From Deltaproteobacteria bacterium (GTDB lineage: Bacteria; Myxococcota; Kuafuiibacteriia; Kuafuiibacteriales; Kuafuiibacteriaceae), in the NCBI GenBank assembly GCA_040218735.1, contig JAVJQW010000057.1, positions 224,001 through 288,000 of the forward strand: 64,000 nt of DNA, in the 5' to 3' direction. Below the pieces are notes generated by a model. It was given only the letters and a program-made list of their open reading frames with translations. It ran no database searches and was not told the DNA's origin. Made by a program: the position numbers and the translations under genes. Below are positions 27,320 through 42,197 of this stretch, piece by piece (positions within the stretch are counted from its first letter, which is position 1; every line of letters begins with the position of its first letter).

Positions 27320-27329
27320 GGTGCCCGCG

Positions 27330-28250
27330 ATGACGATCGAACCCATCGACAAACTCACTTTCCTTCCCCCGGAGCGCACCCGGCGCGCCGACGGCGCGCT
27401 GCGCCGCGCCGGCTTCGAGATCGAGCTGGGCGGCGCGAAGCCGGGCGCGGTCGCCCGCATCGTCGCGAGCCTCTTCGACGGCGACGCGACTCGCGTGAAC
27501 CCGCACGTCTGGCGAATCGACGGAACCCGCTTCGGCGCCTTTCGCGTCGAGCTCGACTGGCGCTTCCTCACCCAGCAGGGCTACCGGAGCTTTCTGGAGC
27601 GCGCGGGGATCGAGGTGTCCGCGTCGCTCGAAGACTTCGTCAACGACGTCGCGCACCACGTGGTGCCGTGTGAGATCGTCTGCCCGCCGATCGCCGTCGA
27701 CGCGCTCCAGAACCTGAACGCCCTGGAGGAGATGCTGCGCTGGGAGGGCGCGGAGGGGTCCGACGCCTCCGTGCTCAACGCGCTGGGCCTTCAGATCAAC
27801 ATCGAGCTCTGCGACGAATCGATCGAGTCCATCCTCGCGCACCTTCGTGCGTTCATCGATCGCTACGCGTGGCTCGAGCGGCAGATCGATCCCGGCCTGA
27901 CCCGTCGCGTGACGCGCTTCGCGGCGCCCTTCCCCGACGACTACGCGCAGCTCGTGCTCGACCCCGACTACGCGCCGAACGCGGAGCGATTCACCGACGA
28001 CTACCTGGCCCACAACCCCACGCGGAACCGAGCCCTCGACCTCCTCCCGATCCTCGCGCACCTCGACGAGGACCGCGTGCTCGCGCGCGCACGCGAGCCC
28101 GAGCTGGTGAAGCCGCGCCCCGCGCTGCACTACCGGCTCCCGAGCTGCCGCCTCGACGATCCCGACTGGTCGATCGCGCTGGAGTGGAACCGCTGGCTCG
28201 AGATCGAGCGTCGCGCCGAGCACTGGATGTCGGCGCGGGTGACGTGTTGA
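27330..28250 (+). CDS. Putative amidoligase (COOH-NH2 ligase, Amidoligase_2 family)
   Basis: RRAGFEIELGG, FRVELDW, VPCEIVCPP, ALGLQINIE, YLAHNPTRNRALDLLP, KPRPALHYRLP; GAGGT SD before ATG 27330. Confidence 0.85.
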   Translation: MTIEPIDKLTFLPPERTRRADGALRRAGFEIELGGAKPGAVARIVASLFDGDATRVNPHVWRIDGTRFGAFRVELDWRFLTQQGYRSFLERAGIEVSASLEDFVNDVAHHVVPCEIVCPPIAVDALQNLNALEEMLRWEGAEGSDASVLNALGLQINIELCDESIESILAHLRAFIDRYAWLERQIDPGLTRRVTRFAAPFPDDYAQLVLDPDYAPNAERFTDDYLAHNPTRNRALDLLPILAHLDEDRVLARAREPELVKPRPALHYRLPSCRLDDPDWSIALEWNRWLEIERRAEHWMSARVTC

Positions 28251-29005
28251 GCCGACCGCGCGTCGGCGTCACCGGCCCGGATCGCGGCGGCCGCGCAGCG
28301 TGGTGGGCGACGCACGTCGCCCTCGCGCGCAGCGGCGCACGTGCCGTTCGCATCACGCCGAGTCGGCCCTGCGAAGACCCGTCGACGTTGAGCGCGCTCG
28401 TCGTCGGCGGCGGCGCGGACGTCGACCCGCAGCTCTACGACGCACCCGAGCTCCCGACGAACACCGCGACTCCTTCCGCGAAGGCGCGCTTCTGGGGCGG
28501 CGTCGTGCACGTGGTTCGTCGGCTCTCCATGGCGAAGCGGCGCACCGGCCTCGACCACGCGCGTGACGCGATGGAGACCGAGCTCGTGCGGCACATGCTC
28601 ACCGCTCGCAAGCCGATCCTCGGCATCTGTCGCGGCGCGCAGCTGATCAACGTCGTCCTCGGTGGCTCCCTCTTCCAGGACCTCGGTTCGTTCTACGCCG
28701 AGCGTCCGAACCCTCACACCGTGCTCCCGAAGAAACGCGTCGCGGTCGACCCCGAGAGCCGCCTGCACGCGCTCGTCGGCCGCGCGGACCTGCGCGTCAA
28801 TGCGCTCCACAAGCAGGCGATCAAGGACGTCGCACCCGCGCTCCGCCGCGTGGCCGTCGAATCGAACGGCGTCACGCAGGCGGTGGAGGCACGAGATGGT
28901 TTTGTGGTCGGCGTGCAGTGGCACCCCGAGTACATGCCGCAGAGCGCGGCGCAGCTGAGGATCTTCGGCGGGCTCGTCGCGGCGGCTCAGACGCCCTCGA
29001 GCTGA
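28247..29005 (+). CDS. Gamma-glutamyl-gamma-aminobutyrate hydrolase family (peptidase C26, class I glutamine amidotransferase)
   Basis: GGGADVDP, RDAME, LGICRGAQLINV, VNALHKQA, GVQWHPE; TTG start overlaps the upstream TGA. Confidence 0.9.
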   Translation: MSRPRVGVTGPDRGGRAAWWATHVALARSGARAVRITPSRPCEDPSTLSALVVGGGADVDPQLYDAPELPTNTATPSAKARFWGGVVHVVRRLSMAKRRTGLDHARDAMETELVRHMLTARKPILGICRGAQLINVVLGGSLFQDLGSFYAERPNPHTVLPKKRVAVDPESRLHALVGRADLRVNALHKQAIKDVAPALRRVAVESNGVTQAVEARDGFVVGVQWHPEYMPQSAAQLRIFGGLVAAAQTPSS

Positions 29006-30264
29006 GGGACGTCGAGCAGGAAGTCGTGGCCGATCACGGCGTCGCCGCGTTCGTTGCGCCCCCGGAGGTGAACGCCGATGACGTCGCCGCCGTCGTCGTC
29101 GACCTCGACGGTGCCGAACTGGCCGCGCCGCGTGATGGTGCCTTCGCTGTACGGTCCCCCCTTCACCGACGTCGATCGATCCAGCGGCCCGCCGTGGAAG
29201 ACGGGGAAGCCGCCATGGGCGTTGTTGCGGCCGTTGTCGATCGCGAGCATGTGCGCGTCACCGGAGAGCATGAGCATCCGGTCGAACCCGCGCTCTGCGA
29301 ACGCGCGCCCCAGCTCGACGCGCTCGCGTTGGAAGCCACCCCACGAGTCCGTCTCCGAGCGATCGCTGATCCACGCGACCGCCGACACCCAGACTACGAG
29401 GGCGTGCGTCGCGTGGGCCTGCTCGAGCTCGTCGAGGAGCCACGTACGCTGATCGGCGCCGAGCATGGTTCCGGCGTCGCGGTTCCGTGCGGAGCGCAGG
29501 TCCGTCATCACGAACCGGATGCGTCCGAACGAGAACGCCTGGTGGATCGGTCCGGACTCCCCCGTCGGGAGCGTGTAGTGCGGCACGACCTGGCGATAGG
29601 CCTCCTGCGCCGCGGGGCGTCCGGCCGCGCTGGCGTCGGAGTTGTCCGGCCCGTAGTCGTGGTCGTCCCAGACGTACGCCGTCGGAAACTCCTGGTGAAG
29701 CGCGGCGCGGCGCGCGGCGCCGAACGCACGGTCGTACGCCGTGCGAAACGCCATCACGTCGTTCCTCGAGATGTCCTCGTAGTGAAAGTCGCCATCGAGG
29801 AGGAAGAAGTCCGGTGCGTACCGACGAATGGCGTCGAACACGACGTGGTTGCTTCCGGTGTCCGCGCAGCTCCCGAACGCGAGGCGGAGGTTCGACGGCC
29901 CGTCCGGGAACGTCGCGAAGCGTCCGATGCGCGGCCCCTCGGTGCCGTCGTTCTCGAGGCCATAGTAGTAGCGCGTCGACGGCTCGAGCCCGTCGACCGC
30001 GAACCGTAGGAGTGGTTCGTGGATGCGGGCTGGCTCGAAGACCGTAGCGTCGGTCAGGTCCGGCTCGGTGCTCACGAGGAGGTTGCGCCCCTCGGTCGCG
30101 AGCGCCTTCACGACCACGCTCGCGTCCGTCGGCGTGACCCCGCCCGACCACGCCCAGGCAGGCGCGGGGGGCGGAGGCGGCGCACACCGCGCGAGCGCGG
30201 CGGCGCCCGTCACGGCGGCGGTGCCCTCCAGGAAGGTACGTCGGTCGAATCTTCTGTTCTTCAT
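28987..30264 (-). CDS. phoD: Alkaline phosphatase D family (PhoD) with Tat/lipoprotein signal
   Basis: DRRTFL twin-arginine signal followed by ALARC; FGSC, GDFHYED, WDDHDYG, DLRSAR, TMLGADQ..W, DSWGGF..ER, LSGDAH; ATGA overlap with the kinase gene. Confidence 0.88.
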   Translation of the reverse strand: MKNRRFDRRTFLEGTAAVTGAAALARCAPPPPPAPAWAWSGGVTPTDASVVVKALATEGRNLLVSTEPDLTDATVFEPARIHEPLLRFAVDGLEPSTRYYYGLENDGTEGPRIGRFATFPDGPSNLRLAFGSCADTGSNHVVFDAIRRYAPDFFLLDGDFHYEDISRNDVMAFRTAYDRAFGAARRAALHQEFPTAYVWDDHDYGPDNSDASAAGRPAAQEAYRQVVPHYTLPTGESGPIHQAFSFGRIRFVMTDLRSARNRDAGTMLGADQRTWLLDELEQAHATHALVVWVSAVAWISDRSETDSWGGFQRERVELGRAFAERGFDRMLMLSGDAHMLAIDNGRNNAHGGFPVFHGGPLDRSTSVKGGPYSEGTITRRGQFGTVEVDDDGGDVIGVHLRGRNERGDAVIGHDFLLDVPQLEGV

Positions 30265-31901
30265 GGTGACTCCTCGGCCCGAACGACGCCCACGATCCGG
30301 CGCCCCTCGGGGCCGCGCCCGAGGTGGACCTCGACGGGCTCCAGCTCGGCGCCGTCGCGTTCGGTGGTGATCTTCAGGATGACGTACGGGTCGACGGTCG
30401 ACAGGAAGTCGTCGACACACACGACGCCGGACGACGACGGCGCGACCGCGTAGGCGTCCAGCGGTCGTCCCTCGCTCGTGAAGGCGACGACCTCGTACGC
30501 CGTCGATTCGGGGGCGGCGAAGCCGTGTTCGATCCACGCATCGACGAAGCAGAAACGCCCGGGCTCGACGCGAAAACGATCGAGCGGCGTCACGCGCGAG
30601 AAGCCGAGCTCGAGCAGCGTCCGGCGGCGCTCGACGAGCGTCCGCACCATGTACGCCTCCGCCCTCGGGTCCGTGTACTGCGCGGCGCGTACCGCCGCTT
30701 CGATGTGCGCCGGCGTGACCTTGGCGAGCACGGACGCCGCCCAGAGCTCGTCGTACCGAGTGCGCTCACGAAAGACGGGTTGCGGATACTTCGGGACCCA
30801 CTCGTCCGGGAGGAAGACGTCGCTCTGGAAGCGCGCGATGCCGCGCATCCCGCGCACCGGCGCGATGCGTTCCCAGGGACGCGTCCACAACCCGAACGTC
30901 GGGAGCGTCGCCAGCGCGTAGCCGACATCCCAGGCCACGGCGAACCCGTCGACGGCGCGCGGGTGGAGGGTCGCGTTGACGCCGAGGGTCTTGTCGAAGT
31001 CGACGAGGTAGTGCCGAACGAAGCTCCGCCCGTCGTCGGAGACGAACACGTCGAGGCGGTTGTCCTTCTTGAAGTCGGTGTGTTCGAGCCACGCCGCGAA
31101 CATGTGCAGGCCACGCAGCTCACGCCGGTGCTGGTGCTCGATGATGTCGTTCGGGTCGTCGGCGCGGCGGCCTTCGGCGGTCCACCCGCCGATCGGCTCA
31201 CCATCCAGGAAGCGACTGAAGAGCCCGCGGATCCCCGCCTCGTCTCGGCCGACGTCCGCGAGCAGCTCGTCGAGGAGCTCGCGGTCGAGCTTCAACCGCG
31301 CGCCGTTCAGCATGAGCTCGACCTCCTCCGCGATGCGGAGCTCGTCGGGCGAGAAGTACGCGATGTGGTCCTCGGGCACGTGATAGCCGAGCGCGTAGAA
31401 GAGCCGCTGCGCCACGATGTTCGCCGCCGACTTCATCTCCGGGTGGGCGGCGTCGTCGAACTTCAGGATGAACTTCAGACCGCGCGCGTCCTCGACGATG
31501 AACCCCACCGACTTACCGCCCTGCTTCGCGGACTTCACGACGAACGGGGGCGTCGGCGCGTCGACCTCGCGCCCCGGACCCCGGAGGACCTCCTCGGGCG
31601 TCAGGAACCGGTTCTCGAACCAGCTCGAGTCCGGGACGCCGCCGATCGCGTTCACGTTCTTCGCGCGCAGCACCGGCGGCGCGGCGAGGGCGCGGTCGAT
31701 CGGCTCCGCGATGATCGAATCGAACACGTGGTGCGCGCGTTGGAAGGACGTGATCTCGGGCCGCTCCTCGACGTGAGCGCCGTCCGTCACCTTCCACACG
31801 ATGGGGCGGTCCTCGAAGCGAACGTCGGAGATCGGGCCGGTCGTCGCGCACGCGCTCACGGCGCCGGCGACGAGGACGAGGGTCGGGGTTCGAAGGTTCA
31901 T
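30261..31901 (-). CDS. Lipoprotein with protein-kinase-like fold
   Basis: Lipobox AVSAC; Gly loop KQGGKSVGF, FILKFD, HPE, catalytic loop HTDFKKDN, metal-binding YLVDFD. Confidence 0.75.
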   Translation of the reverse strand: MNLRTPTLVLVAGAVSACATTGPISDVRFEDRPIVWKVTDGAHVEERPEITSFQRAHHVFDSIIAEPIDRALAAPPVLRAKNVNAIGGVPDSSWFENRFLTPEEVLRGPGREVDAPTPPFVVKSAKQGGKSVGFIVEDARGLKFILKFDDAAHPEMKSAANIVAQRLFYALGYHVPEDHIAYFSPDELRIAEEVELMLNGARLKLDRELLDELLADVGRDEAGIRGLFSRFLDGEPIGGWTAEGRRADDPNDIIEHQHRRELRGLHMFAAWLEHTDFKKDNRLDVFVSDDGRSFVRHYLVDFDKTLGVNATLHPRAVDGFAVAWDVGYALATLPTFGLWTRPWERIAPVRGMRGIARFQSDVFLPDEWVPKYPQPVFRERTRYDELWAASVLAKVTPAHIEAAVRAAQYTDPRAEAYMVRTLVERRRTLLELGFSRVTPLDRFRVEPGRFCFVDAWIEHGFAAPESTAYEVVAFTSEGRPLDAYAVAPSSSGVVCVDDFLSTVDPYVILKITTERDGAELEPVEVHLGRGPEGRRIVGVVRAEESP

Positions 31902-33217
31902 CGTTCACTCCTCGGGGGACGTTCGAAGTCGGGGCTCAGCACGAAGTTGAAGACGACGTCGCCGTCCTTCGAGCCGCCCGCCTGGATGCGCGCGACGACG
32001 GAGTCCATCCCGTGCACCTGGAGGCCGCCGCCGAACCCGAGCCCCCAGAAGTCGACGTCGAGCTCGGACCAACGCGGGAACACACGACCGCCATCGACGA
32101 AGAGGAACGCGTCGAAGTGCGCGGACAGGGGGTAGCGGTACTCGACGCTGCCCAACACGACGTTCTGATCGCGGAAGCGGTCACGGCGGTAACCGCGCAA
32201 CAGCTCGGGGCCGCCGAGGCGCGGCAGGTCGATCGTCGGCACGTCGTCCGCGCCGAACACCCCTTCGGTGTAGACGCGGAGCACGAGCACGCGGGTGCCG
32301 TACGCGACGTCGATCAGGTACTGCGCGTCGGCCGAGTAGCGGAAGTACTGCGTCGGCGCGTCGGACGTGACCTGCGTGGCGCCGAAGGTCCCCGACACGT
32401 ACAGGCCCTCGCTCGGCGTCGCCGCCGGCACGAGCTCCGCCGGGCGACGGGAGTCGTAGGTGAAGCGCAGCTCCTCGTAGAACAGGTCGACCTGCGGACG
32501 GAACGCGGCGAGGTCGGCGTTCGGGTTGTCGATGGAGTTGCGGACGTCGGAGCGCGAGTACACGCCGGAACCGGTGAACGCGAGGCGGTCGGTGGGCCTT
32601 ACGACGAACCCCGCGCGGCCGAGGGAGCGCCGACGTTGGATGCGAATCAGGTCCGAGCCAGGTGTCGGGCCCAGACCGAAGAACCGCTCGTTCGGAAGGT
32701 CTTCGTAGGCGCCCTCCGCGACGAACGCGAAGTGGCGACCGAGGAGCGTCCCGGTGTCGAGGTCGGCGCCGTAGCTCTGGCGAAAGCGGCCGCCGTAGCC
32801 GGCGCGCGCGCCGAGGTGCGCGTTCTCGTCGAACACGTTGCGCAGCTCGGCCCGAGCGCCGACGTTCAAGCCGAAGCCCGTCTCGACGAACGCCGTCGGG
32901 TACACGCCGAACGTGCGGCTGTCGTTGTAGAACAGGTCGACGAGGAACCCGGGCACGTCGTTCTTCTCGAGCACGTAGATCGCCTGCCCGAGCGGCCACA
33001 GCACGGCGTTCGACGCGACGCGCGGCAGGAACAGGACCCCCTGGAGCACACGACGACCGGGGGACACCGATTCGTCGGGCTCGACGCGATAGGTCGTCGC
33101 GGCGTCGGGCGCGGCCGTACCGACCGTTGCGGTCTGCGTACTGCCCGCGAGCCCGGCGCCGCCCGTGACCGTCGCGGACAGGACGAGCGGGAGGAGTGGA
33201 AGCGCGTTGGGGGGCAT
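31898..33217 (-). CDS. BamA/TamA (Omp85) family outer-membrane barrel without obvious POTRA array
   Basis: Signal peptide MPPNALPLL (ATG 33217); LGGPELLRGYRRDRFRD (VRGF/Y loop), GSVEYRYPL, FLFVDGGRVF, LGFGGGL. Confidence 0.82.
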   Translation of the reverse strand: MPPNALPLLPLVLSATVTGGAGLAGSTQTATVGTAAPDAATTYRVEPDESVSPGRRVLQGVLFLPRVASNAVLWPLGQAIYVLEKNDVPGFLVDLFYNDSRTFGVYPTAFVETGFGLNVGARAELRNVFDENAHLGARAGYGGRFRQSYGADLDTGTLLGRHFAFVAEGAYEDLPNERFFGLGPTPGSDLIRIQRRRSLGRAGFVVRPTDRLAFTGSGVYSRSDVRNSIDNPNADLAAFRPQVDLFYEELRFTYDSRRPAELVPAATPSEGLYVSGTFGATQVTSDAPTQYFRYSADAQYLIDVAYGTRVLVLRVYTEGVFGADDVPTIDLPRLGGPELLRGYRRDRFRDQNVVLGSVEYRYPLSAHFDAFLFVDGGRVFPRWSELDVDFWGLGFGGGLQVHGMDSVVARIQAGGSKDGDVVFNFVLSPDFERPPRSER

Positions 33218-33232
33218 CGGGCGAAACCGAAT

Positions 33233-33248
33233 TGCAACGCGCGTACCG
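33233..33248 (-). promoter_or_regulatory. Putative sigma54 promoter for the Omp85-kinase-phoD operon
   Basis: Minus strand CGGTACG-CGCG-TTGCA, 15 nt before ATG 33217. Confidence 0.55.
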
Positions 33249-33368
33249 CCGCCGCGAATCGTGCGGCGCTGCGGCGAACCGGTCGGGATACGCGGCACCG
33301 TGCCACGAGCGCGACCCGTGCTGAGGCATCCTGTCTCGCCGCGCGCCCCGGCGAGGCCGGCTTCGGCG

Positions 33369-33384
33369 CGGCACGTCCCCTGCA
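33369..33384 (+). promoter_or_regulatory. Putative sigma54 promoter for the NTT-HEAT operon
   Basis: CGGCACG-TCCC-CTGCA, 12 nt before GTG 33397. Confidence 0.6.
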
Positions 33385-33396
33385 CTCGTCGAGCGG

Positions 33397-35994
33397 GTGC
33401 GCGGACAACGGACGACCACCACGATCGCGCAGGTCGCCCTCGGACTGATCATGGCCGCGCACCAGGCCTCCGAGACCGCGCGCGACGCGTTGTTCCTCGC
33501 CAAGCTCGGACCGACCGAGCTCCCGACCGTCTATCTGATCCTCGCCGCAATCGGGATCCCGGTCGCGATGCTCCCGCACACGAAGCGACGCCCGCTCACC
33601 GCGGGGCTCCTCTGGCTCTTCGCGCCGATCACCGTGTCGTTCGCGTGGACGATCACGATGAGCCCGCACGCCTCGCGCGCGCTCTACGTCTGGACCGGCC
33701 TGTCGACGACCATCGTCGTCACGTTCTTCTGGCGCTCCCTCGCCGACCGCTACGACATCCCGCACGCGAAGTCTGCGTTCCCGCGCATCGCGCTCGGCGG
33801 CATCGTCGGCGCCGCGCTCGGCGCGCTCGGCGCCCGCGGGCTCGTCGAGTACTTCGACACACGCTTCCTGCTCGCCGGCGCCGGGGTGCTGTGGGCGATC
33901 GCCGGCGGCGTCACCTGGTGGCTGCAGCGACGCCTCGGGGAGCGCACCGACGCCGCGCGCGACGCCGACGACGAACCACGCCCGAGGAGCCGCCTCGACG
34001 ACCTCCGGCAGGCGTTCGGATCGAAGTACGTGCGGAGCGTGGGGGTGCTGCTCGTCATCGCCTCGATGACGTTCACGAGCCTCGACTACACGTTCAAGGC
34101 GGTCGTCGCGAACCAGGTCGACGTCGCGAAGCTCGCCAGCTCGTTCGCGACGTTCTACCTCGTGCTGAACGTCGTCGCGCTCGTGACCCAAGTGGTCCTC
34201 GCGAAGCGTGTGCTCCACCGCATCGGCCTCGGCACGCTCGTGCTCTTCCTTCCCAGCCTGATCGTCCTCGGCTCCGTCGGCGTGATCATCGGCGGCGGCG
34301 CGATCGCCGCCCTCGCCCTGAAGGGCATCGACGGCAGCCTGCGCCACTCACTCCACCGCACGTCGACCGAGCTGCTGTTCGTTCCGATGTCCTCGAACGA
34401 CCGCTCCGTCACCAAGCCGATCTTCGACATCGTCGGCAAACGCGGCGGCCAAGCGCTCGGGTCGCTGCTCATCCTGGCCTTCCTGCTGATCTCGAAGGAC
34501 ACCACCGTGTTCGCTTCGATCACCGCGGGCCTCGCCGCGATCTGGTTCGCCGGCGGCGTCCTCGTGCGCAAGCGCTACCTCGATGTCTTCCGCTCCGCGC
34601 TACGCGACCGCGCCGCGTTCCCCGCGGACCTCCCGGAGCTCGGGCTGACCGAGCTGTCGACGATGTTGGAGGCGCTCAACAGCGACGCCGAGGGCGAAGT
34701 CATCGGCGCGATCGACGTCCTCGAAGCGCACGGACAGATCGCGACCGTGCCCGACCTCATCCTCTATCACCCGTCGCCCGAGGTCCTGATCCGCGCGCTG
34801 ACCGCGTTCCGCGCGCAGGGGCGACGCCGCGTTCGTCGCCTCGCGGTGCGCCTCCTCGGCCACGAACGCGCCGACGTCCGCGCCGAGGCCCTCCTCACGC
34901 TCGCCGCGATGTCCGAGGCTGCGCCGCACCTCGAACGCGCGCGCGCCGACGTCGACCCGGTGGTCCGCGGCATCGCGACGGCGCTCACCTGGACCCCCGA
35001 CGAGGTCGAGTGGTTCGAAGTCTTCGACGGAAGGACCACCCCCGAGACCCGCGCGGTGCAGGTCGGCGTCGCGCGCGCGTTCCGCTACCTGCAGGATTCG
35101 ATTCGCGATCGTCTGACCGTCGAGCACTTCGAAGCCGCGTCGGCGGAAGCCCAACGTGCGCTCGCGGAGGCGCTCGCCGAGCGACCCAAGACACGCGACG
35201 TCCCAATCCACATCGCATCACTCGCGTTCCGCGGACCGCGTGAGCACGCCCGTGCGGCGCTCGTCGCGATCGGCCAGCCCGCGCTCGACGCCTGCATCGA
35301 AGCGCTCCGCGCGAGCGACACCGATCTGTCGATCCGCGTGCACCTCCCCCGCACGCTCAGCCTGTTCGACCCGGTGAAGGTCGCGCCGATCCTCGCCACC
35401 AGCATCGTCGACGAGACCGACGAGCTCGTCCGCCACAAAGCCCTGCGCGGCCTCGGTCGACTGGTCGTGACGCACCCCGGCCTCCCGCTCCACGAAGACC
35501 GCCTCGTCGCGGCCTGCGAGCGCGAGCTGCGCTGGACGTTCCGCATGATCGCGGTTCGACGGGTGCTCGAGACCATCGACGACGTCCCGCCAACGACCAC
35601 CGCGATCCACGAAGCCCTCCTCGCGCTCCTCGCGGAGTCCGAGCGACGCGGCATCGAGCACATCTTCCGCCTGCTCCACCTCATGAACCCGGAGCCGGAC
35701 CTCGAGACCATGTTCCACAGCGTCATGAGCGCCGACGACCGACAGCGCATCGGCGCGCGCGAGCTGCTGACCGACCTCGTCGAGCTGCGGTTCCGCGCCG
35801 CGGTCCTCGCACTGGTGTCCGACGACGACGACGACATCCGACTCGAAGCCGGCGCCGAGTGGCTCGGACGTCCGGTGCACGATCTGAGCGACGCCCTCGA
35901 CGAGCTCGCGGGCGTCCGAGGCCCGCTGGAGCAGGCCGCGTCGCGGTACCGTGAGGTGCTCGACGCAACGCTCCGCCAACCGGAGGTCGCATGA
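33397..35994 (+). CDS. Npt1/Npt2 (TLC/NTT ATP/ADP translocase family) transporter fused to HEAT repeats
   Basis: About 12 TM; ETARDALFL, LDYTFK, DGSLRHSLHRTSTELLFVPM...TKPIFD..GKRGGQALG; C-terminal HEAT pattern (LLGHERADVRAEA, DVDPVVRG, DELVRHKALRGL). Confidence 0.85.
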   Translation: MRGQRTTTTIAQVALGLIMAAHQASETARDALFLAKLGPTELPTVYLILAAIGIPVAMLPHTKRRPLTAGLLWLFAPITVSFAWTITMSPHASRALYVWTGLSTTIVVTFFWRSLADRYDIPHAKSAFPRIALGGIVGAALGALGARGLVEYFDTRFLLAGAGVLWAIAGGVTWWLQRRLGERTDAARDADDEPRPRSRLDDLRQAFGSKYVRSVGVLLVIASMTFTSLDYTFKAVVANQVDVAKLASSFATFYLVLNVVALVTQVVLAKRVLHRIGLGTLVLFLPSLIVLGSVGVIIGGGAIAALALKGIDGSLRHSLHRTSTELLFVPMSSNDRSVTKPIFDIVGKRGGQALGSLLILAFLLISKDTTVFASITAGLAAIWFAGGVLVRKRYLDVFRSALRDRAAFPADLPELGLTELSTMLEALNSDAEGEVIGAIDVLEAHGQIATVPDLILYHPSPEVLIRALTAFRAQGRRRVRRLAVRLLGHERADVRAEALLTLAAMSEAAPHLERARADVDPVVRGIATALTWTPDEVEWFEVFDGRTTPETRAVQVGVARAFRYLQDSIRDRLTVEHFEAASAEAQRALAEALAERPKTRDVPIHIASLAFRGPREHARAALVAIGQPALDACIEALRASDTDLSIRVHLPRTLSLFDPVKVAPILATSIVDETDELVRHKALRGLGRLVVTHPGLPLHEDRLVAACERELRWTFRMIAVRRVLETIDDVPPTTTAIHEALLALLAESERRGIEHIFRLLHLMNPEPDLETMFHSVMSADDRQRIGARELLTDLVELRFRAAVLALVSDDDDDIRLEAGAEWLGRPVHDLSDALDELAGVRGPLEQAASRYREVLDATLRQPEVA

Positions 35995-36959
35995 AACGAA
36001 AGAAACATCGCCCGCGCGCGTACCGCGTCTCGCCCCAGGAACGGATGACCCACCTGCGCAGCGCCCCCTTCTTCCGCGCGCTCCCGACTCGCGATCTCGT
36101 GCCGTTCGCGGAGCTGGCCTCCGAGCGATCACACCGACGCGGCACCGCGATCGTCGAACGGTCGACCGCGCCCCGTGGCTTCCACGTCTTGGTCGAAGGG
36201 GAAGCCGTGATGCGCCGACGCCGCCTCACCGTGCGTCGCGTGGGTGCGGGGTGCCCGATCGGATTGTTGGCGCTCCTCGCGCGCGAAGAGCGCGACACGG
36301 AGGTCGTCGCGGTCACGCCCGCCCTCACCCTCTCCCTCGACGCTGCGGTGTTCTTCGGCCTGCTCGAAGAACGCTTCGACGCGTTCCTCCACGTCCTCCG
36401 TGCGACCGCGTCTCAGCTCGTCTACGAGCGCAACGTCGTCGGCCTCGCGCGTGCGCTGCGCGCGAGTCGTTCGCGCACGAACCGCGGCGTGGACGCCGAC
36501 GACGCGGTCGATCGTTTCATCGGCCTCAGGCGCGCCGCGCCCTTCGGCGACGACGGCCTCTTCGGGCTGTGGCACCTCGCGCGACGCGCACGCACCGTGA
36601 CCTTCGAGCGGGGCGATCGTCTCATCGCCGAGGGGGAGCCGGCGCGAACGCTCTTCGTCCTCACGGACGGCGACGTCGAGATCGACCGTGACGGCCGCGG
36701 GCTCGCGACGCTCGGCGCGCAGGACACGTTGAGCGCCGTCGAGCTGCTCGCGCAGGAGCCGCGTGCGTACGGCGCGGTCGCCAACACGAGCGGCGCGGCG
36801 ATCGTGGTGGACCGCGAAGAGTTGTTCGACGTGTTCGAGGATCATTTCGAGCTCGGGACGAGCTTCCTCGCGCGAATCTCGCGGGCGGTGCTGGACTTGA
36901 TGGAGGCGCGCGCCCGGCGCGAGGAAGAGCTACCGAGCGGCTTCGATCGACTGAGCTGA
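35991..36959 (+). CDS. Tandem cyclic-nucleotide-binding (cNMP) domain protein
   Basis: LRSAPFFRAL, FHVLVEGEA, second domain FERGDRLIAEGEPARTLFVLTDGDVEI, EPRAYGAVA; ATGA overlap; no HTH. Confidence 0.85.
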   Translation: MKRKKHRPRAYRVSPQERMTHLRSAPFFRALPTRDLVPFAELASERSHRRGTAIVERSTAPRGFHVLVEGEAVMRRRRLTVRRVGAGCPIGLLALLAREERDTEVVAVTPALTLSLDAAVFFGLLEERFDAFLHVLRATASQLVYERNVVGLARALRASRSRTNRGVDADDAVDRFIGLRRAAPFGDDGLFGLWHLARRARTVTFERGDRLIAEGEPARTLFVLTDGDVEIDRDGRGLATLGAQDTLSAVELLAQEPRAYGAVANTSGAAIVVDREELFDVFEDHFELGTSFLARISRAVLDLMEARARREEELPSGFDRLS

Positions 36960-36961
36960 CT

Positions 36962-37987
36962 TCAGAGCGTCTCGAGCAGTTTTGCGAAGCGGATCCGAAC
37001 GTCCTGAATCTCCTGCTTCGTGAGACCGAGCTGCACGACCCCCTCACCGCGACGAATCCCCGCGTCGGACTCGAGCGGCGGGAACCGATCTCCGAGCGGA
37101 CGCGGAACCTCGGTCACGACCCAGGCGTCCCCCTGTCGACGGAGGACCGCGACGGTGGCGAGGCGATCGAACTCGACCGGGTCGACGCGGAGGAGCTGCT
37201 CGTGCACCGGCCCGGGGAGCGACGGGATGACCGGCTTCGCCCAGTCGCGGTCCTTGTCGAACCAGCGCACGAGGGGGTTGAAGAGCCCGCTGAACGCGAA
37301 GCCGTTGTCGATCAGGAAGACGCGCTTGGGGGCCTTGGCGTCGTCCACCAGGACGTTGCGGGAGTGGGAGTCACCGTGGGCGATGACGTTCGCGAGCACG
37401 TTCAGGCGAGCCACGGCGACGCGGTAGCTCGGATCCTCGGCGTAGCGCTGGGGGTCCCAGAGCTCCTCGACGGACTCCGCGTTGTAGATCCACGGCGTCA
37501 CCAGCCCGGCGACGCAGGCGTCGTCCTCGAAGGTCGCCTCCGCGTCGGCGAGCAGCTGGGGGTAACGGTCGCGCGACAGACAGAGCACCGTGGAGTGCGG
37601 CACGACCTCCTGACTCTCGCCGAACAACATGTCCGCGGTCGCCGCCGCCGCGAGCTCGCGACGCGGGCTGTTGTTGAACGCGTCGGCGAAGTCGGGCGCG
37701 ACGGTGCGCCATTTGAACAACACGCGCACACGCGGTTCGCGCTCGAAGCGCGCGAGCACCTTCTTCGCCGGCGTGGTGCCCGGGACGGGGACGGACTCGA
37801 GGACTTCGAACGGTTCCGTGGCGAGGCGCGCCACGAGGTCGGTCCCCGGTACGCAGACCTCGTCGGACTCGACGCCGCCACCGCAGACGGCCTCTGGGCC
37901 CGATGGTGTCCGCGTCATGGGCCGATTGGGGTTCCTCGAACAGCCGGCGAGGAACAGGACGACGAGAAGGCAGGTCGCGCGATTCAT
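36962..37987 (-). CDS. Lipoprotein with atypical kinase fold (PI3/4-kinase, HipA or Fam20-like motifs)
   Basis: Lipobox FLAGC (ATG 37987); VLFKW, RRELAA, HGDSHSRNVL, FLIDNGFAF. Confidence 0.75.
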   Translation of the reverse strand: MNRATCLLVVLFLAGCSRNPNRPMTRTPSGPEAVCGGGVESDEVCVPGTDLVARLATEPFEVLESVPVPGTTPAKKVLARFEREPRVRVLFKWRTVAPDFADAFNNSPRRELAAAATADMLFGESQEVVPHSTVLCLSRDRYPQLLADAEATFEDDACVAGLVTPWIYNAESVEELWDPQRYAEDPSYRVAVARLNVLANVIAHGDSHSRNVLVDDAKAPKRVFLIDNGFAFSGLFNPLVRWFDKDRDWAKPVIPSLPGPVHEQLLRVDPVEFDRLATVAVLRRQGDAWVVTEVPRPLGDRFPPLESDAGIRRGEGVVQLGLTKQEIQDVRIRFAKLLETL

Positions 37988-37999
37988 GAGCGCTGACGA

Positions 38000-38015
38000 T
38001 GCAGGATGTTTGCCA
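38000..38015 (-). promoter_or_regulatory. Putative sigma54 promoter
   Basis: Minus strand TGGCAAA-CATC-CTGCA, 12 nt before ATG 37987. Confidence 0.62.
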
Positions 38016-38113
38016 GCGCCGGCTCGCGCGCTTCGTCCGACGCGGCGTGGCCAACTGCCACAGGTCGGCGAAGTCGCCCCGCCCGAACACACGGAGACAC
38101 GTCGGGTCACGCC

Positions 38114-38129
38114 TGGAACCCGAGTTGCA
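38114..38129 (+). promoter_or_regulatory. Putative sigma54 promoter
   Basis: TGGAACC-CGAG-TTGCA, 13 nt before GTG 38143. Confidence 0.6.
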
Positions 38130-38142
38130 TCGACCGGACCTC

Positions 38143-39711
38143 GTGCGCATCGCAGCCATCGACATCGGGTCGAACTCCGTCCACATGATCGCCGCCGACG
38201 CTCGCGCCGCCGGCGGCCTCGACCTGATCGACAAAGCGAAGGACTTCGTACGGCTCGGCGACGGGGTCTTCGAGACCGGCTTGCTGCGCGAGGACCGCGT
38301 CGAAGCCGCCGTCCAGGCAATCGACGGCTACGCACGCATCGCGCGCTCGATCGGCGCCGAGCGCGTCGTCACCGTCGCGACCAGCGCGACGCGCGACGCC
38401 GAGAACGGCGAGGACTTCGTGCGCCGACTCCGCGACCGCACCGGCGTCGACGCGCGCGTCATCTCCGGCGAGGAGGAGGCGCGCCTGATCTACCTCGCGG
38501 TGCTCCAGAAGATCGATCTGCACGGCAAGCGCGCGCTGGTCGTGGACGTCGGCGGCGGCAGCGTGGAGCTCTCGCTCGGCACGGGCGAACAGATCGCGAT
38601 GGCCGAGAGCCTCGACCTCGGCGTCCGCCGCCTCCGCGATACCGTCGGCGCCCCCGGGAAGCTCGACGGCGAAACGATCGAGCGCGTGCGTCGGCACGTC
38701 GAGCGGACGGCGGAGTCGATCGTCGATCGCGTCCACGAACACGGCGTCGACCTCCTCGTCGGCACCTCCGGCACGCTGAAGACCCTCGGCGAGCTCACGG
38801 TGCACCCCGACGCCGGGTGGAAGACGATCAACTCCGAGTCGACCTCCCTGGAGGACCTCGAAGCGATCACCAAGAGGCTCGTGAAGCAGACGCCGGACGA
38901 GCGCGTCGAGAAGTCGGGCGTGGAGCGGCGCCGCGCGGACACCATCCACCTCGGCGCGCTGCTCATCACCACGTTGATGAAGCGCCTCGGGATGGACGCG
39001 ATCACCTTCTCCGACGCTTCGCTCCGCGAGGGTGTCATCCAAGATCACCTCCGAGCGAGTGAAGCCGCCGCCGGGCGAGCGCTGACCGGTTCGCTGCAGC
39101 GCCGCTCGGTGTTCGAGCTGGGGCGCCGCTACGGCGCGGACGGCCCTCGCGCTCGCCACGTCCGAACCCTCGCGCTCGAGCTGTTCGATCGCACCCGCGA
39201 ACTTCATCAGCTCGACGAGGACGATCGGCGCTTCCTGGAGTACGCGTCCGAGCTGCACCGCGTCGGCCACTTCGTGAGCTACCGCCGCAACCACAAACAC
39301 GCGCGTTACCTGATTCGACACGCGAGAATGCCGGGCTTCACGAACGACGAAGTGCGCTTCCTCGCCCTCCTCGTCCGCTACCACCGTAAGGCGAAGCCGA
39401 AGAAGAAACACAAGCGCTACAAGAAGCTCTCGAAGTCACGGCGCCGCGCGATTCGCGTCCTCGCCGGGCTCCTGCGCGTCGCGATCGCACTCGACCGCAA
39501 GGGGGGCCAGACCGTCACGTCGGCGTTGGTGGAGGTGCACGACGACCGCGTCGAGATCTACGCGTCGGGGGAGAGTGTGTTGGACGAGGTGCGCGCCGCG
39601 CGCTCGGAGCGCGCGCTGCTCGAGCGCTCGTTGGATCGCGAAGTCGTGATTCAGTCCGGGGTCGACGAGGCTTCGTCGATGCCCCACTTGTCGAGCCCGC
39701 GTTCTTCCTGA
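38143..39711 (+). CDS. ppx: Exopolyphosphatase / pppGpp phosphohydrolase (Ppx/GppA, long form with HD-like domain)
   Basis: RIAAIDIGSNS, VATSATRDAEN, ISGEEEARLIY, DVGGGSVE, GTSGT, LREG, HKHARYLI; start reassigned to GTG 38143. Confidence 0.93.
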   Translation: MRIAAIDIGSNSVHMIAADARAAGGLDLIDKAKDFVRLGDGVFETGLLREDRVEAAVQAIDGYARIARSIGAERVVTVATSATRDAENGEDFVRRLRDRTGVDARVISGEEEARLIYLAVLQKIDLHGKRALVVDVGGGSVELSLGTGEQIAMAESLDLGVRRLRDTVGAPGKLDGETIERVRRHVERTAESIVDRVHEHGVDLLVGTSGTLKTLGELTVHPDAGWKTINSESTSLEDLEAITKRLVKQTPDERVEKSGVERRRADTIHLGALLITTLMKRLGMDAITFSDASLREGVIQDHLRASEAAAGRALTGSLQRRSVFELGRRYGADGPRARHVRTLALELFDRTRELHQLDEDDRRFLEYASELHRVGHFVSYRRNHKHARYLIRHARMPGFTNDEVRFLALLVRYHRKAKPKKKHKRYKKLSKSRRRAIRVLAGLLRVAIALDRKGGQTVTSALVEVHDDRVEIYASGESVLDEVRAARSERALLERSLDREVVIQSGVDEASSMPHLSSPRSS

Positions 39712-41084
39712 GTGCCGGGGATCGTGTTGTCGAGGACGACCGCGATCAGCGCGCCGACACCCATGCCCGTCTTACCGAGCGCGTTGAGGATGTCCGAGAG
39801 CCACACGAACGAAGCCCCGAGGTCGATCGCGTTCGCCTCGTTCGCGAAGTACTCCGGCACCGACAGCCCCATGAAGAACGCGAAGCCGATGATGAAGAGG
39901 TTGCGCGCCGAGTTGAGGTCGACGAACTGCAGGTTCGACAGGCCAACCCCGGCGATCATCCCGAACATCGCGCAGTACATCCCGCCGACCACCGGCTGCG
40001 GGATGGTCGTGAACAGCGCACCGAACTTCCCGAACGCACCGAGCACGAGCATGATCGTCGCGCCCATCTGGACGACGCGCCGACTACCGACGCGCGTCAG
40101 ACCGATCGCGCCGATGTTCTCGCTGTAGGAGGTCGTACCGTTACCGGTGCCGAAGACGCCGGCGATCAAACACCCGACACCCTCCATCCCGATGCCGCGG
40201 TTGATCGTCTTCTTCGTCGGCGTCGGAGCGCCGGAGAGGCGCGCCGCCGCGAAGTAGTCACCGATCGACTCGACCATCGACGCGACGTACCCCGCGATCA
40301 TCCCGATCGCCGCCGCGACGCCGAACTTCGGCGTCCCCCACTGGAACGGGTACGGCACCCGGAACCACGGCGCAGACGCGAGCACGTCCGTCTTCACGTG
40401 CGCAGGGTGCCCCTCCGGGAACACGCCTGTGAACGTGAGCAACGCCGACGTCCCCCACGCGAGCAGGATCGCGAGCAGGATGGGGAACAGCTCGAAGACC
40501 CGGTGCGACCGTCGCAGGTACTGCGAGAAGAGGATGATGAGCCCGATCGTCAGCCCGCCGATCCCCCAGTGCGAGCCCGCGATCGGCGCGCCGAACTTGA
40601 ACAGCGCCAGACCGATCAACGCGATCGTGGGAGCGATCGTCACGGGCCCGACGAACCGAAGCATCGCCCCGACCAACCCGGTGTAGCCGACGATGATCTC
40701 GAAGACCGCACCGATGATGATCGCGCCCTGCACGTGCTGGAGGCGCGTCTCGTACCCGGCCGACGCGAGCGCGGCCATGCCGCAGATCGCAAACGTCGGC
40801 GCGAAGAACGAGAACGTGCCGCCCTGCACGATCGGGAGCCGATTCCCGAACGTCGTCTGCATCAGCGTGGTGATCCCGCTGATGAAGAACATGGTGCCGA
40901 TCAACAGACCGAGCTCGACCGGCTTGTCCTTCAGCCCGAGGGGCTCCGCGAGGATCAACGGGATGGCCACCGTCGACCCGAACATCGTCAGGTAGTGCTG
41001 GAAGCCGAGGGTGATCGACTCCGCCAACGGAGGGACGTCGTCGATGCCGTACAGGATGTCGGGTTTGGTGGGGCGGTTGGCCAT
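39651..41084 (-). CDS. Nucleobase:cation symporter-2 (NAT/SLC23 family) permease
   Basis: QHYLTMFG, RLPIVQGGTFSF, ESIGDY, NAT motif SYSENIGAIGLTRVGSRRV, RNLFIIG. Confidence 0.93.
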   Translation of the reverse strand: MANRPTKPDILYGIDDVPPLAESITLGFQHYLTMFGSTVAIPLILAEPLGLKDKPVELGLLIGTMFFISGITTLMQTTFGNRLPIVQGGTFSFFAPTFAICGMAALASAGYETRLQHVQGAIIIGAVFEIIVGYTGLVGAMLRFVGPVTIAPTIALIGLALFKFGAPIAGSHWGIGGLTIGLIILFSQYLRRSHRVFELFPILLAILLAWGTSALLTFTGVFPEGHPAHVKTDVLASAPWFRVPYPFQWGTPKFGVAAAIGMIAGYVASMVESIGDYFAAARLSGAPTPTKKTINRGIGMEGVGCLIAGVFGTGNGTTSYSENIGAIGLTRVGSRRVVQMGATIMLVLGAFGKFGALFTTIPQPVVGGMYCAMFGMIAGVGLSNLQFVDLNSARNLFIIGFAFFMGLSVPEYFANEANAIDLGASFVWLSDILNALGKTGMGVGALIAVVLDNTIPGTQEERGLDKWGIDEASSTPD

Positions 41085-41087
41085 GAC

Positions 41088-42197
41088 TCAGTCGGACGTC
41101 AGCGCCGCGGTCTGTTCCTTGATCGCGTCGCCCGACCACTCGTCGTCACGGCTCCGCTGGCCCGCACGTTCGATCTTCGCCTGCTTCTGACGCTCGACGA
41201 GGTCGAAGTGCGTCGTGAAGTACTCGAGCGCCTTGCCCTCGAAGTCCTTCAGCGTGGTGAAGCCCATCTCGTCCATGTACGCGAGGAGGTCGTCGCAGAG
41301 CTCGGTGATGATGTCGAAGCCGCGCAGCATCGCGCCCGTGCAGATCTGCACCGTGGACGAGCCCATCGCGATGAACTCGGCCGCGTCCATCGCGGTCTCG
41401 ATGCCACCGATGCCGCTGATCGACGCCTTGCCGTACAGCGCGCGTCCGATCTCCGAGACGTGCCGCAGCGCGATCGGACGGACCGCCTGCGCCGAGTAGC
41501 CGCCGGGCACGGTGTACCCCTCGACCGTCGGCCGCGGGCGGAGCTTCTTCAGGTCCACGCCGATCACCGAGAGGATCGTGTTGATCGCTGCGATGCCGTT
41601 CGCGCCCGCCTCGACCGCCGCGAGCGCAGGCTGCGTGATGTCCGTGATGTTGGGCGTCATCTTCGCCCACACCGGAATCGTCGCGACCTCGGTGACCCAG
41701 CCGACCACCTCCTTGGTGATCTCCGGCGACTGCCCCATCGCGGCGCCCATGCGTCGCTCCGGGAGGCCGTGCGGGCACGAGAGGTTCAGCTCGAAAGCGT
41801 CGACGCCCGTCTCCTGGACCTCCTTCGTGATGCGCTGCCACGCCGCCTTGTCGTACTCCTCCATGATGGAGGCGATGAGCATGTGCTCCGGGTACTCCTT
41901 TTTGACGTCGGCGAACTCTTCCAGCCACGTCTCGTAGGGGCGGTCGGAGATCAGCTCGATGTTCTCGAAGCCGATCACCTCGTTGTTGTCGCGTGACTTC
42001 AACTTCCCGTAGCGCGGCGCGACGTTGATGACCTTGCTGCTGTCGAGCGAGATCGTCTTGGCGACGACGCCGCCCCACCCGCGCTCGAAGGCCTTCTTGA
42101 TCACGCGCCCGTTCGTGCCGGGCGGGCCGGAGCCCAGCACGAAGGGGTTCTTGAACTTCATGCCGTCGACTTCGACGGCGAGCGTCGCTTTGCTCAT
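41088..42197 (-). CDS. preA: Dihydropyrimidine dehydrogenase FMN subunit (PreA/PYD1-type)
   Basis: NPFVLGSGPPGTN, ENIELISDRP, ELNLSCPHG, WAKMTPNITDI, GGYSAQAVRPIAL, SGIGGIET, VQICTG. Confidence 0.92.
   Translation of the reverse strand: MSKATLAVEVDGMKFKNPFVLGSGPPGTNGRVIKKAFERGWGGVVAKTISLDSSKVINVAPRYGKLKSRDNNEVIGFENIELISDRPYETWLEEFADVKKEYPEHMLIASIMEEYDKAAWQRITKEVQETGVDAFELNLSCPHGLPERRMGAAMGQSPEITKEVVGWVTEVATIPVWAKMTPNITDITQPALAAVEAGANGIAAINTILSVIGVDLKKLRPRPTVEGYTVPGGYSAQAVRPIALRHVSEIGRALYGKASISGIGGIETAMDAAEFIAMGSSTVQICTGAMLRGFDIITELCDDLLAYMDEMGFTTLKDFEGKALEYFTTHFDLVERQKQAKIERAGQRSRDDEWSGDAIKEQTAALTSD

Follow-up and report, generated by a model that had tools for sequence, protein, structure and literature searches.

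Two unrelated families of exported lipoproteins with predicted kinase folds, here called K1 and K2, share two kinds of genomic neighbor: a transporter of the TLC/NTT type and a phosphatase. Both families are represented in a 64,000-nucleotide stretch of DNA from a Deltaproteobacteria bacterium of the phylum Myxococcota (GenBank assembly GCA_040218735.1, contig JAVJQW010000057.1, positions 224,001 to 288,000, forward strand), which we refer to in its entirety as the window and within which positions are counted from 1. The two genes lie on either side of a transporter operon, in a region of seven genes and four transcription units (28987-39711) that a first-pass annotation had put forward as an extracytoplasmic phosphorylation system with its own nucleotide supply. 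Based on sequence comparison, we consider the association of transporter, kinase-fold protein and phosphatase a solid comparative result, and one that holds even if the direction of supply has been read wrongly. As for the function of the locus, our preferred reading, to which we give about even confidence, is that it encodes a phosphotransfer module that consumes ATP in the cell envelope, fed by an NTT-type exchanger and paired with exported phosphatases. This reading builds on the genes and their motifs, the predicted folds, the export signals, neighborhoods that recur across phyla and domain fusions.

Two families of predicted kinase-fold lipoproteins

K1 is a 546-amino-acid lipoprotein encoded on the minus strand at 30261-31901. 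Neither K1 nor K2 matched any Pfam or NCBIfam family at E ≤ 0.01. When 7,999 candidates were scored against K1, 477 matched, giving a family of at least that size, and none of the 120 homologs listed carried a Pfam domain. A scan using one genome per species recovered K1 relatives in 583 of 599 pattern-matched stretches. The window protein has the motifs HTDFKKDN...VDFD, for which the family consensus is NHTDxKEDN ... DFG, and the key residues are retained in nearly all of 61 aligned sequences (K147 in 60, H274 in 55, D276 in 60, K/R278 in 59, N281 in 59, and D301 and F302 in 61 each). An AlphaFold2 model built from this 61-member alignment had a predicted local distance difference test score (pLDDT) of 92.7 and a predicted template-modeling score of 0.92. 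Foldseek comparison of the model to the PDB returned four matches at E ≤ 1e-3, all of them chains of PI4KIIalpha or CtkA, with PI4KIIalpha the best match (E = 3.7e-4), H. pylori CtkA at 6.7e-4 and template-modeling (TM) scores, normalized to the target, of 0.50-0.58. The weaker matches listed were mostly kinases (Fam20C, HipA, CotH), with a few non-kinases among them. The sole tie to a named family at the sequence level was HipA_2, which weakly matched 6 of the 61 relatives (best E 0.003). We regard it as secure, as a prediction from modeling, that K1 has a kinase fold with intact active-site residues and falls outside the described families.

The N-terminus of K1 ends its signal in a lipobox (...AGAVSAC). 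A strict lipobox was present in 34 of the 61 relatives, and the other N-termini that we inspected were, by eye, mostly near-lipobox or Sec signals; at least one relative begins within the mature part of the protein.

K2 (341 amino acids, 36962-37987, minus strand) represents a second unnamed family. A word-based search found 8 relatives, and searching 1.84 billion representatives with a profile gave 602 clusters at E ≤ 1e-3, of which 420 passed 1e-10 and 250 passed 1e-30. The protein carries the motifs HGDSHSRN...IDNG and a lipobox (...FLAGC), and its relatives likewise carry lipoboxes or signal peptides. Residues K92, H204, D206, N211 and D227 are invariant in all 8 aligned sequences. The AlphaFold2 model of K2 had a pLDDT of 69 and matched Fam20C (4.7e-4), PknB (9.5e-4) and PI4KIIalpha in Foldseek, while three fused relatives of K2 gave weak matches to PI3_PI4_kinase (16-20 bits against a cut-off of 27.1). 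From the model, a kinase fold with intact active-site residues, again outside described families, is probable for K2, with features that are PI3/4-kinase-like or Fam20-like. Public gene calls start K2 at an internal methionine, yielding a protein of 318 amino acids. The sequence supports a start at ATG 37987, since homologs align across the lipoprotein signal and a promoter-like motif lies 13 nt upstream. The first-pass annotation had described both proteins as lipoproteins with kinase-fold motifs, and both parts of that description stood: structure prediction and Foldseek gave kinase folds with matches led by kinases, and export is indicated by the lipoboxes of the two window proteins together with export signals across both families.

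We considered whether K1 and K2 might be a single family. Profile-profile alignment with hhalign aligned only the catalytic motifs, with a probability of 2%, and the two are treated here as separate. Leads from the ESM Atlas for K1 and K2 included a bacterial Fam20C-like cluster and clusters bearing PI3/PI4-kinase domains. A further Atlas lead, a K2-like C-terminal domain on a K2-linked phosphatase, was discarded after hhalign of the K2 profile against that protein (L115:1380-3239) gave a probability of 0.3%.

Transporters and phosphatases recur beside both families

To describe the neighborhoods of K1, we used the best 80 of the 583 species-level stretches and compared them by tblastn with the window proteins and by all-against-all clustering of open reading frames (ORFs). 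By tblastn, an NTT-like transporter was present in 32 of the 80 loci, within 3 kb in 28 and with HEAT repeats in 11; where the contig extended at least 8 kb on both sides, it was found in 15 of 32. Clustering placed a transporter in 38 K1 loci, of which we regard at least three as artefacts in which the ORF overlaps K1. Transporter-bearing loci came from at least six phyla, under the labels Myxococcota, Acidobacteriota, Zixibacteria, Gemmatimonadota, Fibrobacteraceae and Cytophagia. A protein with cyclic-nucleotide-binding (cNMP) domains was near K1 in 13 of 80 loci by clustering and 8 of 80 by tblastn. The genes are arranged much as in operons. Three loci (L003, L006, L011) read, on one strand, short TLC, NTT-HEAT, cNMP, barrel and K1, and in three others (L044, L045, L063) a barrel-K1-PAP2 unit diverges from NTT-HEAT and cNMP, mirroring the window. 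As background, a genome among the 61 relatives contains no more than about 10 TLC matches, and in 14 control genomes there were none; TLC genes being so few, simple arithmetic puts chance adjacency within 10 kb at about 2% or less. At the level of whole genomes, all 19 of the 61 relatives that have K1 also have TLC and all 7 without TLC lack K1, a pattern with little power (about 1 in 10 by chance) because TLC occurs in 54 of the 61 and the relatives are not independent. Clusters of Ser/Thr kinases (26/80) and histidine kinases (15/80) near K1 were rejected as parts of the module, as their abundance predicts similar counts; in the genome studied here a Hanks kinase lies within 5-8 kb of 16-24% of random positions.

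The K2 loci came from an independent scan of metagenome contigs, in which relatives were found in 287 of 599 stretches; the best 80 were used, with a median length of 3.6 kb. A TLC gene was near K2 in 33 of the 80, rising to 20 of 25 loci with at least 2 kb downstream and 10 of 11 with at least 3 kb on both sides, and in 18 loci it was no more than 300 nt from K2 (one example scored 75 bits). In four loci (L089, L114, L140, L148) NTT-HEAT is followed by K2, with the cNMP gene between them in three. Five loci contain, between NTT-HEAT/cNMP and K2, a conserved protein of about 250 amino acids with no Pfam match (L089:3784-4500, L114:2620-3378 and three others). A PMT_2 glycosyltransferase gene (GT-C, ArnT/PMT-like) was found directly upstream of K2 in 8 of 80 loci (L097, L101, L121, L124, L129, L156, L162 and L167), and these loci usually continue with a PPP-type phosphatase and a convergent TLC gene.

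Domain fusions connect the same partners. Among the 150 best K2 representatives, four were long proteins. In P0201, K2 follows a TLC domain (32.8 bits) and a hydrophobic segment; P0161 and P0220 each join a signal peptide, K2 and a PPP-type phosphatase; and P0190 joins a signal peptide, a class-A-beta-lactamase-like domain and K2. Were the TLC domain of P0201 to have 12 helices like its solved relatives, the extra hydrophobic segment would place its K2 domain outside the cytoplasm. Three over-long ORFs with K2 or K1 (L093, L136, L075) were examined as domain fusions and set aside; they lack Pfam matches and are probably read-through in GC-rich DNA. Another over-long K2 ORF (L126:6110-10924) matched only Beta-lactamase2 in Pfam; as in P0190, its K2 domain comes after a signal peptide and a class-A-beta-lactamase-like domain, a partner of periplasmic type.

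The first-pass annotation had grouped NTT(-HEAT), kinase-fold lipoproteins, Omp85 and phosphatase together, and their co-occurrence was borne out beyond expectation, with fusions of TLC to K2, of K2 to Metallophos and of K1 to Omp85. Its picture of K1 and K2 as one system was not supported: K2 was in 0 of 80 K1 loci, and K1 or its barrel in 0 of 80 K2 loci. The window thus looks like two related modules around one transporter operon, with barrel, K1 and phosphatase on one side and K2 on the other.

An Omp85-family barrel is conserved beside K1

The gene directly upstream of K1 (31898-33217, minus strand) encodes an Omp85-family barrel (Pfam Omp85, 35.4 bits against a cut-off of 24). When the profile of this barrel family was compared with the PDB, it matched BamA and TamA in their barrels only, with E-values down to 5e-13. 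Pfam detected no POTRA domain in the window protein, and the first ~100 positions of the profile match nothing in the PDB. By sequence, it appears to be a POTRA-less member of the Omp85 superfamily with a 16-strand-type barrel, and not BamA, TamA or TpsB proper. A barrel sits directly upstream of K1 on the same strand in 68 of 80 loci, a figure that becomes 64 of 72 when at least 1.5 kb of upstream sequence is required. Of the six longer K1 relatives that we found, P0277, which is present on four contigs, has a lipobox, K1 and the partner barrel in a single chain, with an i-Evalue of 3e-90 to the barrel profile.

We also predicted the complex of Omp85 and K1. It scored 0.54, compared to 0.00 for the best control, and this is weak support: 58 of 80 solved complexes reached this mark, as did 2 of 110 mismatched pairs, and scores of 0.60 or lower came from only 7 of those 80 solved complexes and from both mismatches. 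Prediction runs shared at least 63% of contacts, and the pLDDT of the partner was at least 85. Together, the P0277 fusion and the complex prediction argue for a model in which K1 is joined to the barrel in a single physical unit. Since Omp85 proteins normally have their N-terminal domains in the periplasm, K1 is, by analogy, most likely on the periplasmic side of the outer membrane. The alternative is display on the cell surface, as in passenger-barrel secretion.

Two observations on longer proteins belong here. P0278-P0282 are K1 relatives of 960-1160 amino acids whose C-terminal extensions, 400-600 amino acids long, match neither Pfam nor the barrel profile. In a metagenome-assembled genome of the Polyangiaceae, a 910-amino-acid ORF with no Pfam match (L075:1236-3965) spans the barrel and K1 matches and may be a second fusion or a frameshift.

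The NTT-HEAT transporter and the cNMP protein

The transporter gene (33397-35994, plus strand) encodes a TLC/NTT-like carrier of the major facilitator superfamily (MFS), with the NTT/TLC-like part at about residues 1-400 and HEAT repeats at the C-terminus (HEAT_2, 41.2 bits). It is followed by a gene for a cytoplasmic protein with two cNMP domains (35991-36959, plus strand; Pfam cNMP_binding, two stretches, 82.7 bits). The similarity to NTTs is distant: Pfam TLC (PF03219, TC 2.A.12) is barely above its cut-off (22.4 bits versus 21), and the score to TIGR00769 is 28.5 against a threshold of 387. A phmmer search aligned residues 97-388 with the solved chloroplast NTT1, ADP,ATP carrier 1 (9j3j), at E = 3e-7, and a crude hydropathy scan found 8 segments in residues 1-400. 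On sequence grounds, we consider the window protein a distant but genuine relative of the chloroplast ATP/ADP carrier NTT1. The short TLC carriers beside K1 and K2 score 33-75 bits (44.7, 57.1 and 75.1 among them), with lower scores to MFS_1. According to Major, Embley and Williams (2017; PMC5381601), an NTT-HEAT protein with an operonic cyclic-nucleotide-binding domain (cNBD) gene is widespread in free-living bacteria and functionally uncharacterized. The window matches the layout given there, an NTT domain, C-terminal HEAT repeats and an adjacent cNBD gene, in its architecture.

The genome encodes two other NTT-HEAT-like paralogs, of 744 and 745 amino acids, on other contigs (C70:363554-367321 and C9:728464-732339). 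Both directly adjoin Hanks-type Ser/Thr kinases that carry an N-terminal block of about six hydrophobic segments, and a positive-inside reading of these sequences suggests that the kinase domain is probably cytoplasmic. A Hanks catalytic motif lies within 8 kb of 7 of the 9 NTT-like loci of this genome, compared to 24% of random positions, a hint that NTT-HEAT proteins and kinases are more widely linked, possibly in regulation.

Exported phosphatases accompany both families, while Ppx does not

Downstream of K1 is a gene for a PhoD-like metallophosphoesterase (28987-30264, minus strand; Pfam PhoD, 70 bits against a cut-off of 27). Its N-terminus, MKNRRFDRRTFLEG, has a twin-arginine motif, and the Pfam TAT_signal score of 21.6 bits is just below the cut-off of 22.7. 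It scored 31.7 against a threshold of 1000 for the NCBIfam PhoD equivalog, and because this threshold was missed we call the protein PhoD-like and not an ortholog.

PhoD had been proposed as the eraser of the system, but PhoD itself gave one weak match beside K1 in 80 loci. Phosphatase clusters were near K1 in 19 of 80 loci (Metallophos in 14, PAP2 in 6), and those Metallophos neighbors that we checked were purple-acid-phosphatase-like. Other exported phosphoesterases, purple-acid-like or PAP2, thus take the place of PhoD in other genomes. Near K2, Metallophos proteins with signal peptides occurred in 18 of 80 loci, and 17 of 22 K2-linked Metallophos ORFs had the PPP-type motifs GDxHG, GDLLDRG (GDxxDRG) and GNHE. 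The phosphatases of K1 loci are not orthologs of those in K2 loci. Non-orthologous phosphatases beside unrelated kinase-fold families are what one would expect if such enzymes had been recruited for a common role.

The last gene of the region encodes a Ppx/GppA-family phosphatase (38143-39711, plus strand; Pfam Ppx-GppA, 218.9 bits), which had been thought to link the system to polyphosphate. We found Ppx in 0 of 80 K1 loci and 0 of 80 K2 loci, and take it to be a bystander in the window that may share regulation with its neighbors.

Gene starts, promoter-like motifs and flanking genes

The seven genes, the overlaps between them and four sigma54-like motifs lie where the first-pass annotation had put them, with two start codons corrected. 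Three ATGA stop/start overlaps can be read in the sequence, at Omp85/K1, K1/PhoD and NTT-HEAT/cNMP. The Omp85 gene starts at ATG 33217 (MPPNALP...), and the upstream GTG of the ORF is wrong; Ppx most likely starts at GTG 38143 (VRIAAIDIGSNS) rather than at ATG 37999.

We searched for TGGCAC-N5-TTGC with up to two mismatches, and all four matches at the locus keep GG-N10-GC. On the minus strand, a sigma54-like -24/-12 motif at 33234-33248 (CGGTACGCGCGTTGC) ends 16 nt before the Omp85 ATG and one at 38001-38015 (TGGCAAACATCCTGC) ends 13 nt before the K2 ATG; on the plus strand, one at 33369-33383 (CGGCACGTCCCCTGC) ends 13 nt before the GTG of NTT-HEAT and one at 38114-38128 (TGGAACCCGAGTTGC) ends 14 nt before the probable GTG of Ppx. 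All four point toward their own gene from within two divergent intergenic regions, and in each the -12 element reads (C/T)TGCA. Counted over the full window, the motif is no more frequent than expected by chance (30 occurrences versus 41 ± 6 in shuffles). Arithmetic from the shuffles gives about 0.2 expected matches in the ~330 bp of these two regions, so the four observed are unusual. A similar motif upstream of homologous barrel genes in other genomes occurred 14 times in 27,948 nt, against 476 times in 2,267,210 nt of background, or 0.50 versus 0.21 per kb (2.4 times more frequent). No gene for a sigma54 activator was found among the ten flanking proteins that we scanned. On this evidence, the four motifs are real features of the sequence and candidate promoters, in which case the transcription units could be co-regulated through sigma54; lying so close to the start codons, they would give almost leaderless transcripts.

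The genes that flank the region look to have no apparent relation to the module. On one side (27321-29005, plus strand), an Amidoligase_2 gene precedes an ORF that resembles class I glutamine amidotransferases in its C-terminal part, and this pair is convergent with the PhoD-like gene. Just downstream of Ppx (39651-43069, minus strand) are genes for a Xan_ur_permease nucleobase permease, a DHO_dh-family (dihydropyrimidine-dehydrogenase-like) protein and a CN_hydrolase, which together look like a pyrimidine-catabolism cluster. Beyond these, 43185-46112 (plus strand) encodes a 975-amino-acid lipoprotein with HYDIN/ASH-type immunoglobulin-like domains. Across 46-54 kb of the window, G+C falls from ~0.70 to 0.63-0.67, with few ORFs of high third-position G+C between 46000 and 54000.

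Proposed mechanism and its alternatives

We propose the following model for an envelope phosphotransfer module. K1 would carry a lipid anchor, with its dedicated POTRA-less Omp85 barrel keeping it at the outer membrane, and K2 would be a second, independent exported kinase-fold lipoprotein. The inner-membrane NTT/TLC transporter would supply the nucleotide on which these proteins act, in the simplest form by passing ATP out and taking back the ADP released by the kinases, while its cytoplasmic HEAT domain and the two-cNMP-domain protein would set its activity. The exported phosphoesterases would reverse or process the phosphorylated product, a role that may fall to the Tat-dependent PhoD-like protein here and to purple-acid-like, PAP2 or PPP-type enzymes elsewhere. 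With regard to targets, the PAP2 and PMT_2 neighbors and the PI4K-like fold hint at lipids or glycans, and the PPP-type phosphatases hint at proteins.

A number of points weigh against this model. Foldseek E-values for K1 and K2 are modest (1e-4 to 1e-3) with low TM-scores, and the K2 model is poor around the catalytic segment, with a pLDDT below 50 for residues 205-254. Searches against PDB chains with the sequences of K1 and K2, and against the PDB with the K1 profile, found nothing significant (single-sequence best E-values of 0.21 and 0.72, and a Tel1 kinase match at E = 1). The association is also incomplete: 17 of the 32 well-flanked K1 loci lack a transporter, only one of the four K1 paralogs in this genome is near one of its approximately nine NTT-like genes, and a K2 relative in another genome (G006) has none of the other six proteins within ~20 kb. 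Each fusion protein is a lone representative in the database, and P0201 may be two genes miscalled as one. The carriers considered here are distant TLC members, whereas canonical NTTs from related small genomes exceed 500 bits, and with family scores this low neither cargo nor direction can be read from homology. According to PMC5381601 and a 2026 preprint, characterized NTTs all import nucleotide into the cell or exchange it in that direction; in the latter, the mitochondrial carrier is given as the only known ATP exporter. The Hanks kinases beside the NTT-HEAT paralogs fit a regulatory link as well as one of supply. Finally, by our reasoning, porins could let ATP escape once it had been released into the periplasm.

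The inward direction of characterized carriers (PMC5381601 and the 2026 preprint) lends itself to the main alternative explanation, in which the NTTs import nucleotides from prey or decaying matter. These nucleotides would be bound or processed by the kinase-fold proteins after entering across the outer membrane through the barrel, and the phosphatases (PhoD, purple-acid-like, PAP2, PPP/ApaH-like) would salvage phosphate from whatever is left outside; alternatively, the transporter-HEAT-cNMP unit could sense external nucleotide as a receptor. Phosphate scavenging is typical of PhoD and purple-acid-type enzymes, the GDxHG, GDxxDRG and GNHE motifs of the K2-linked phosphatases also occur in ApaH nucleotide hydrolases, and signaling kinases adjoin the other NTT-HEAT paralogs. 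The organism groups with Myxococcota-like relatives, many of which are predators, although the module also occurs in Acidobacteriota, Zixibacteria, Gemmatimonadota and Fibrobacteraceae, which are not known as such. Capture or sensing also leaves the conservation of the active site hard to explain, as the catalytic-base aspartate, dispensable for binding, is kept in 60 of 61 K1 and 8 of 8 K2 sequences. Moreover, dephosphorylation of nucleotides would compete with their import, the K2-phosphatase fusions resemble a writer-eraser pair and not a salvage chain, and we know of no precedent for a binding protein that serves an MFS importer. We consider this explanation unlikely.

The low TLC scores leave room for another cargo, such as a lipid-linked or sugar-phosphate precursor that TLC-like carriers export and that kinase-fold enzymes and phosphatases remodel, or for kinase-fold proteins that use a donor other than ATP or perform chemistry of the AMPylation or glutamylation type. 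The best structural match of K1 is the lipid kinase PI4KIIalpha, lipid- and glycan-type neighbors are present (PAP2 in 6 of 80 K1 loci, PMT_2 in 8 of 80 K2 loci), and SelO and SidJ are known examples of kinase folds with non-kinase chemistry. However, the transporters match TLC/NTT only, with MFS_1 lower, and the relative with a solved structure carries ATP/ADP; the arrangement of the Lys, HxDxxxxN and DFG residues is that of ATP-dependent phosphotransferases; and no gene for an alternative phosphoryl donor is conserved nearby, Ppx/polyphosphate being found at 0 of 160 loci. Taken jointly, these variants seem rather improbable to us. It is also conceivable that there is no functional unit at all, just chance neighbors or genes under shared phosphate-starvation regulation, with fortuitous kinase-like motifs. 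Consistent with this, the sigma54-like motif is not above chance window-wide, Ppx and PhoD are not conserved neighbors, and three of the four K1 paralogs in this genome have no NTT gene nearby. Neighborhood frequencies tens of times background in two independent families, gene order kept across phyla, three kinds of domain fusion and catalytic residues conserved family-wide all speak against it, there was no sign that the loci derive from a single mobile element of recent spread, and we judge it very improbable.

Relation to known systems

Under the preferred reading of an exchanger-fed phosphotransfer module, eukaryotic secretory kinases offer one close parallel. Fam20C, Fam20B and POMK have kinase folds that work outside the cytosol on ATP brought in by carriers of the endoplasmic reticulum (ER) and Golgi, with ADP/AMP going out, and Fam20C is among the best structural matches of both K1 and K2. 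The PMT-type glycosyltransferase beside K2 (8 of 80 loci) likewise recalls, by analogy, the eukaryotic O-mannose kinase pathway. There are clear differences. Neither K1 nor K2 has a Pfam match to Fam20C, the connection being an Atlas lead to a bacterial cluster with PF06702 in 11% of its members; the carrier here is of the MFS/TLC type and not SLC35; and the periplasm is open to porins.

CtkA and CotH act outside the cytoplasm of the cell that produces them. K1 shares a predicted fold with HipA/CtkA and CotH, and 6 of 61 relatives weakly match HipA_2; it is unlike them in having extra N- and C-terminal domains, a lipid anchor, a dedicated barrel and no family hidden Markov model match at threshold. 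No HipB-type antitoxin or spore-coat context was found at K1. CotH is described in PMC12189002.

With BamA/TamA and type Vd-like passenger-barrel proteins, the window barrel shares a homologous barrel of the 16-strand type that is paired with, or in P0277 fused behind, an N-terminal domain. It differs in that its partner is a kinase-fold lipoprotein, and not a patatin passenger or Bam lipoprotein, and in that no POTRA was detected. Heinz and Lithgow in 2014 reportedly recognized a 'noNterm' class of Omp85 proteins. The PhoD-like protein shares a Tat-type signal and a PhoD-family domain with PhoD of the Pho regulon, but it is translationally coupled to a kinase-fold gene and far below the equivalog threshold.

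For the transporter, PMC5381601 presents NTT-HEAT with cNBD as a common architecture, with the cNBD gene a few nucleotides downstream, and discusses ATP uptake or exchange of ATP between cells; kinase-fold, Omp85 or phosphatase neighbors do not figure in its passages on this architecture. The present analysis goes beyond it by linking the transporter to exported kinase-like families, and by finding the same for short TLC genes without HEAT. In literature searches whose scope stopped short of the supplements of PMC5381601, we came across no account that connects exported kinase-fold families with NTT carriers, and searches for a periplasmic kinase with an ATP supply, for bacterial Fam20-like lipoproteins and for kinase-like proteins with Omp85 returned no relevant paper.

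We offer, more tentatively than the reading of this locus, a broader hypothesis: many free-living diderm bacteria may phosphorylate targets in the periplasm or at the outer membrane, using reversed NTTs (ATP out, ADP in) under cNMP control, at least two families of exported kinases, one of them docked to an Omp85 barrel of its own, and phosphatases as erasers. The module should be open to testing, as it has few parts and standard assays exist for nucleotide exchange, phosphate transfer and dephosphorylation. The periplasm is taught as ATP-free, and energy for envelope processes is believed to arrive by way of machines that span the envelope. If our reading is true, a dedicated nucleotide supply for exported kinases would change this picture and would provide a bacterial counterpart of the ER/Golgi secretory kinase system. 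It would explain two large exported families now annotated as 'hypothetical' (K1, with at least 583 species-level loci, and K2, with 602 representative clusters) and give a role to a class of POTRA-less Omp85 barrels. It would also assign a function to the NTT and NTT-HEAT proteins of free-living bacteria, a question that goes back to the survey of 2017 (PMC5381601).

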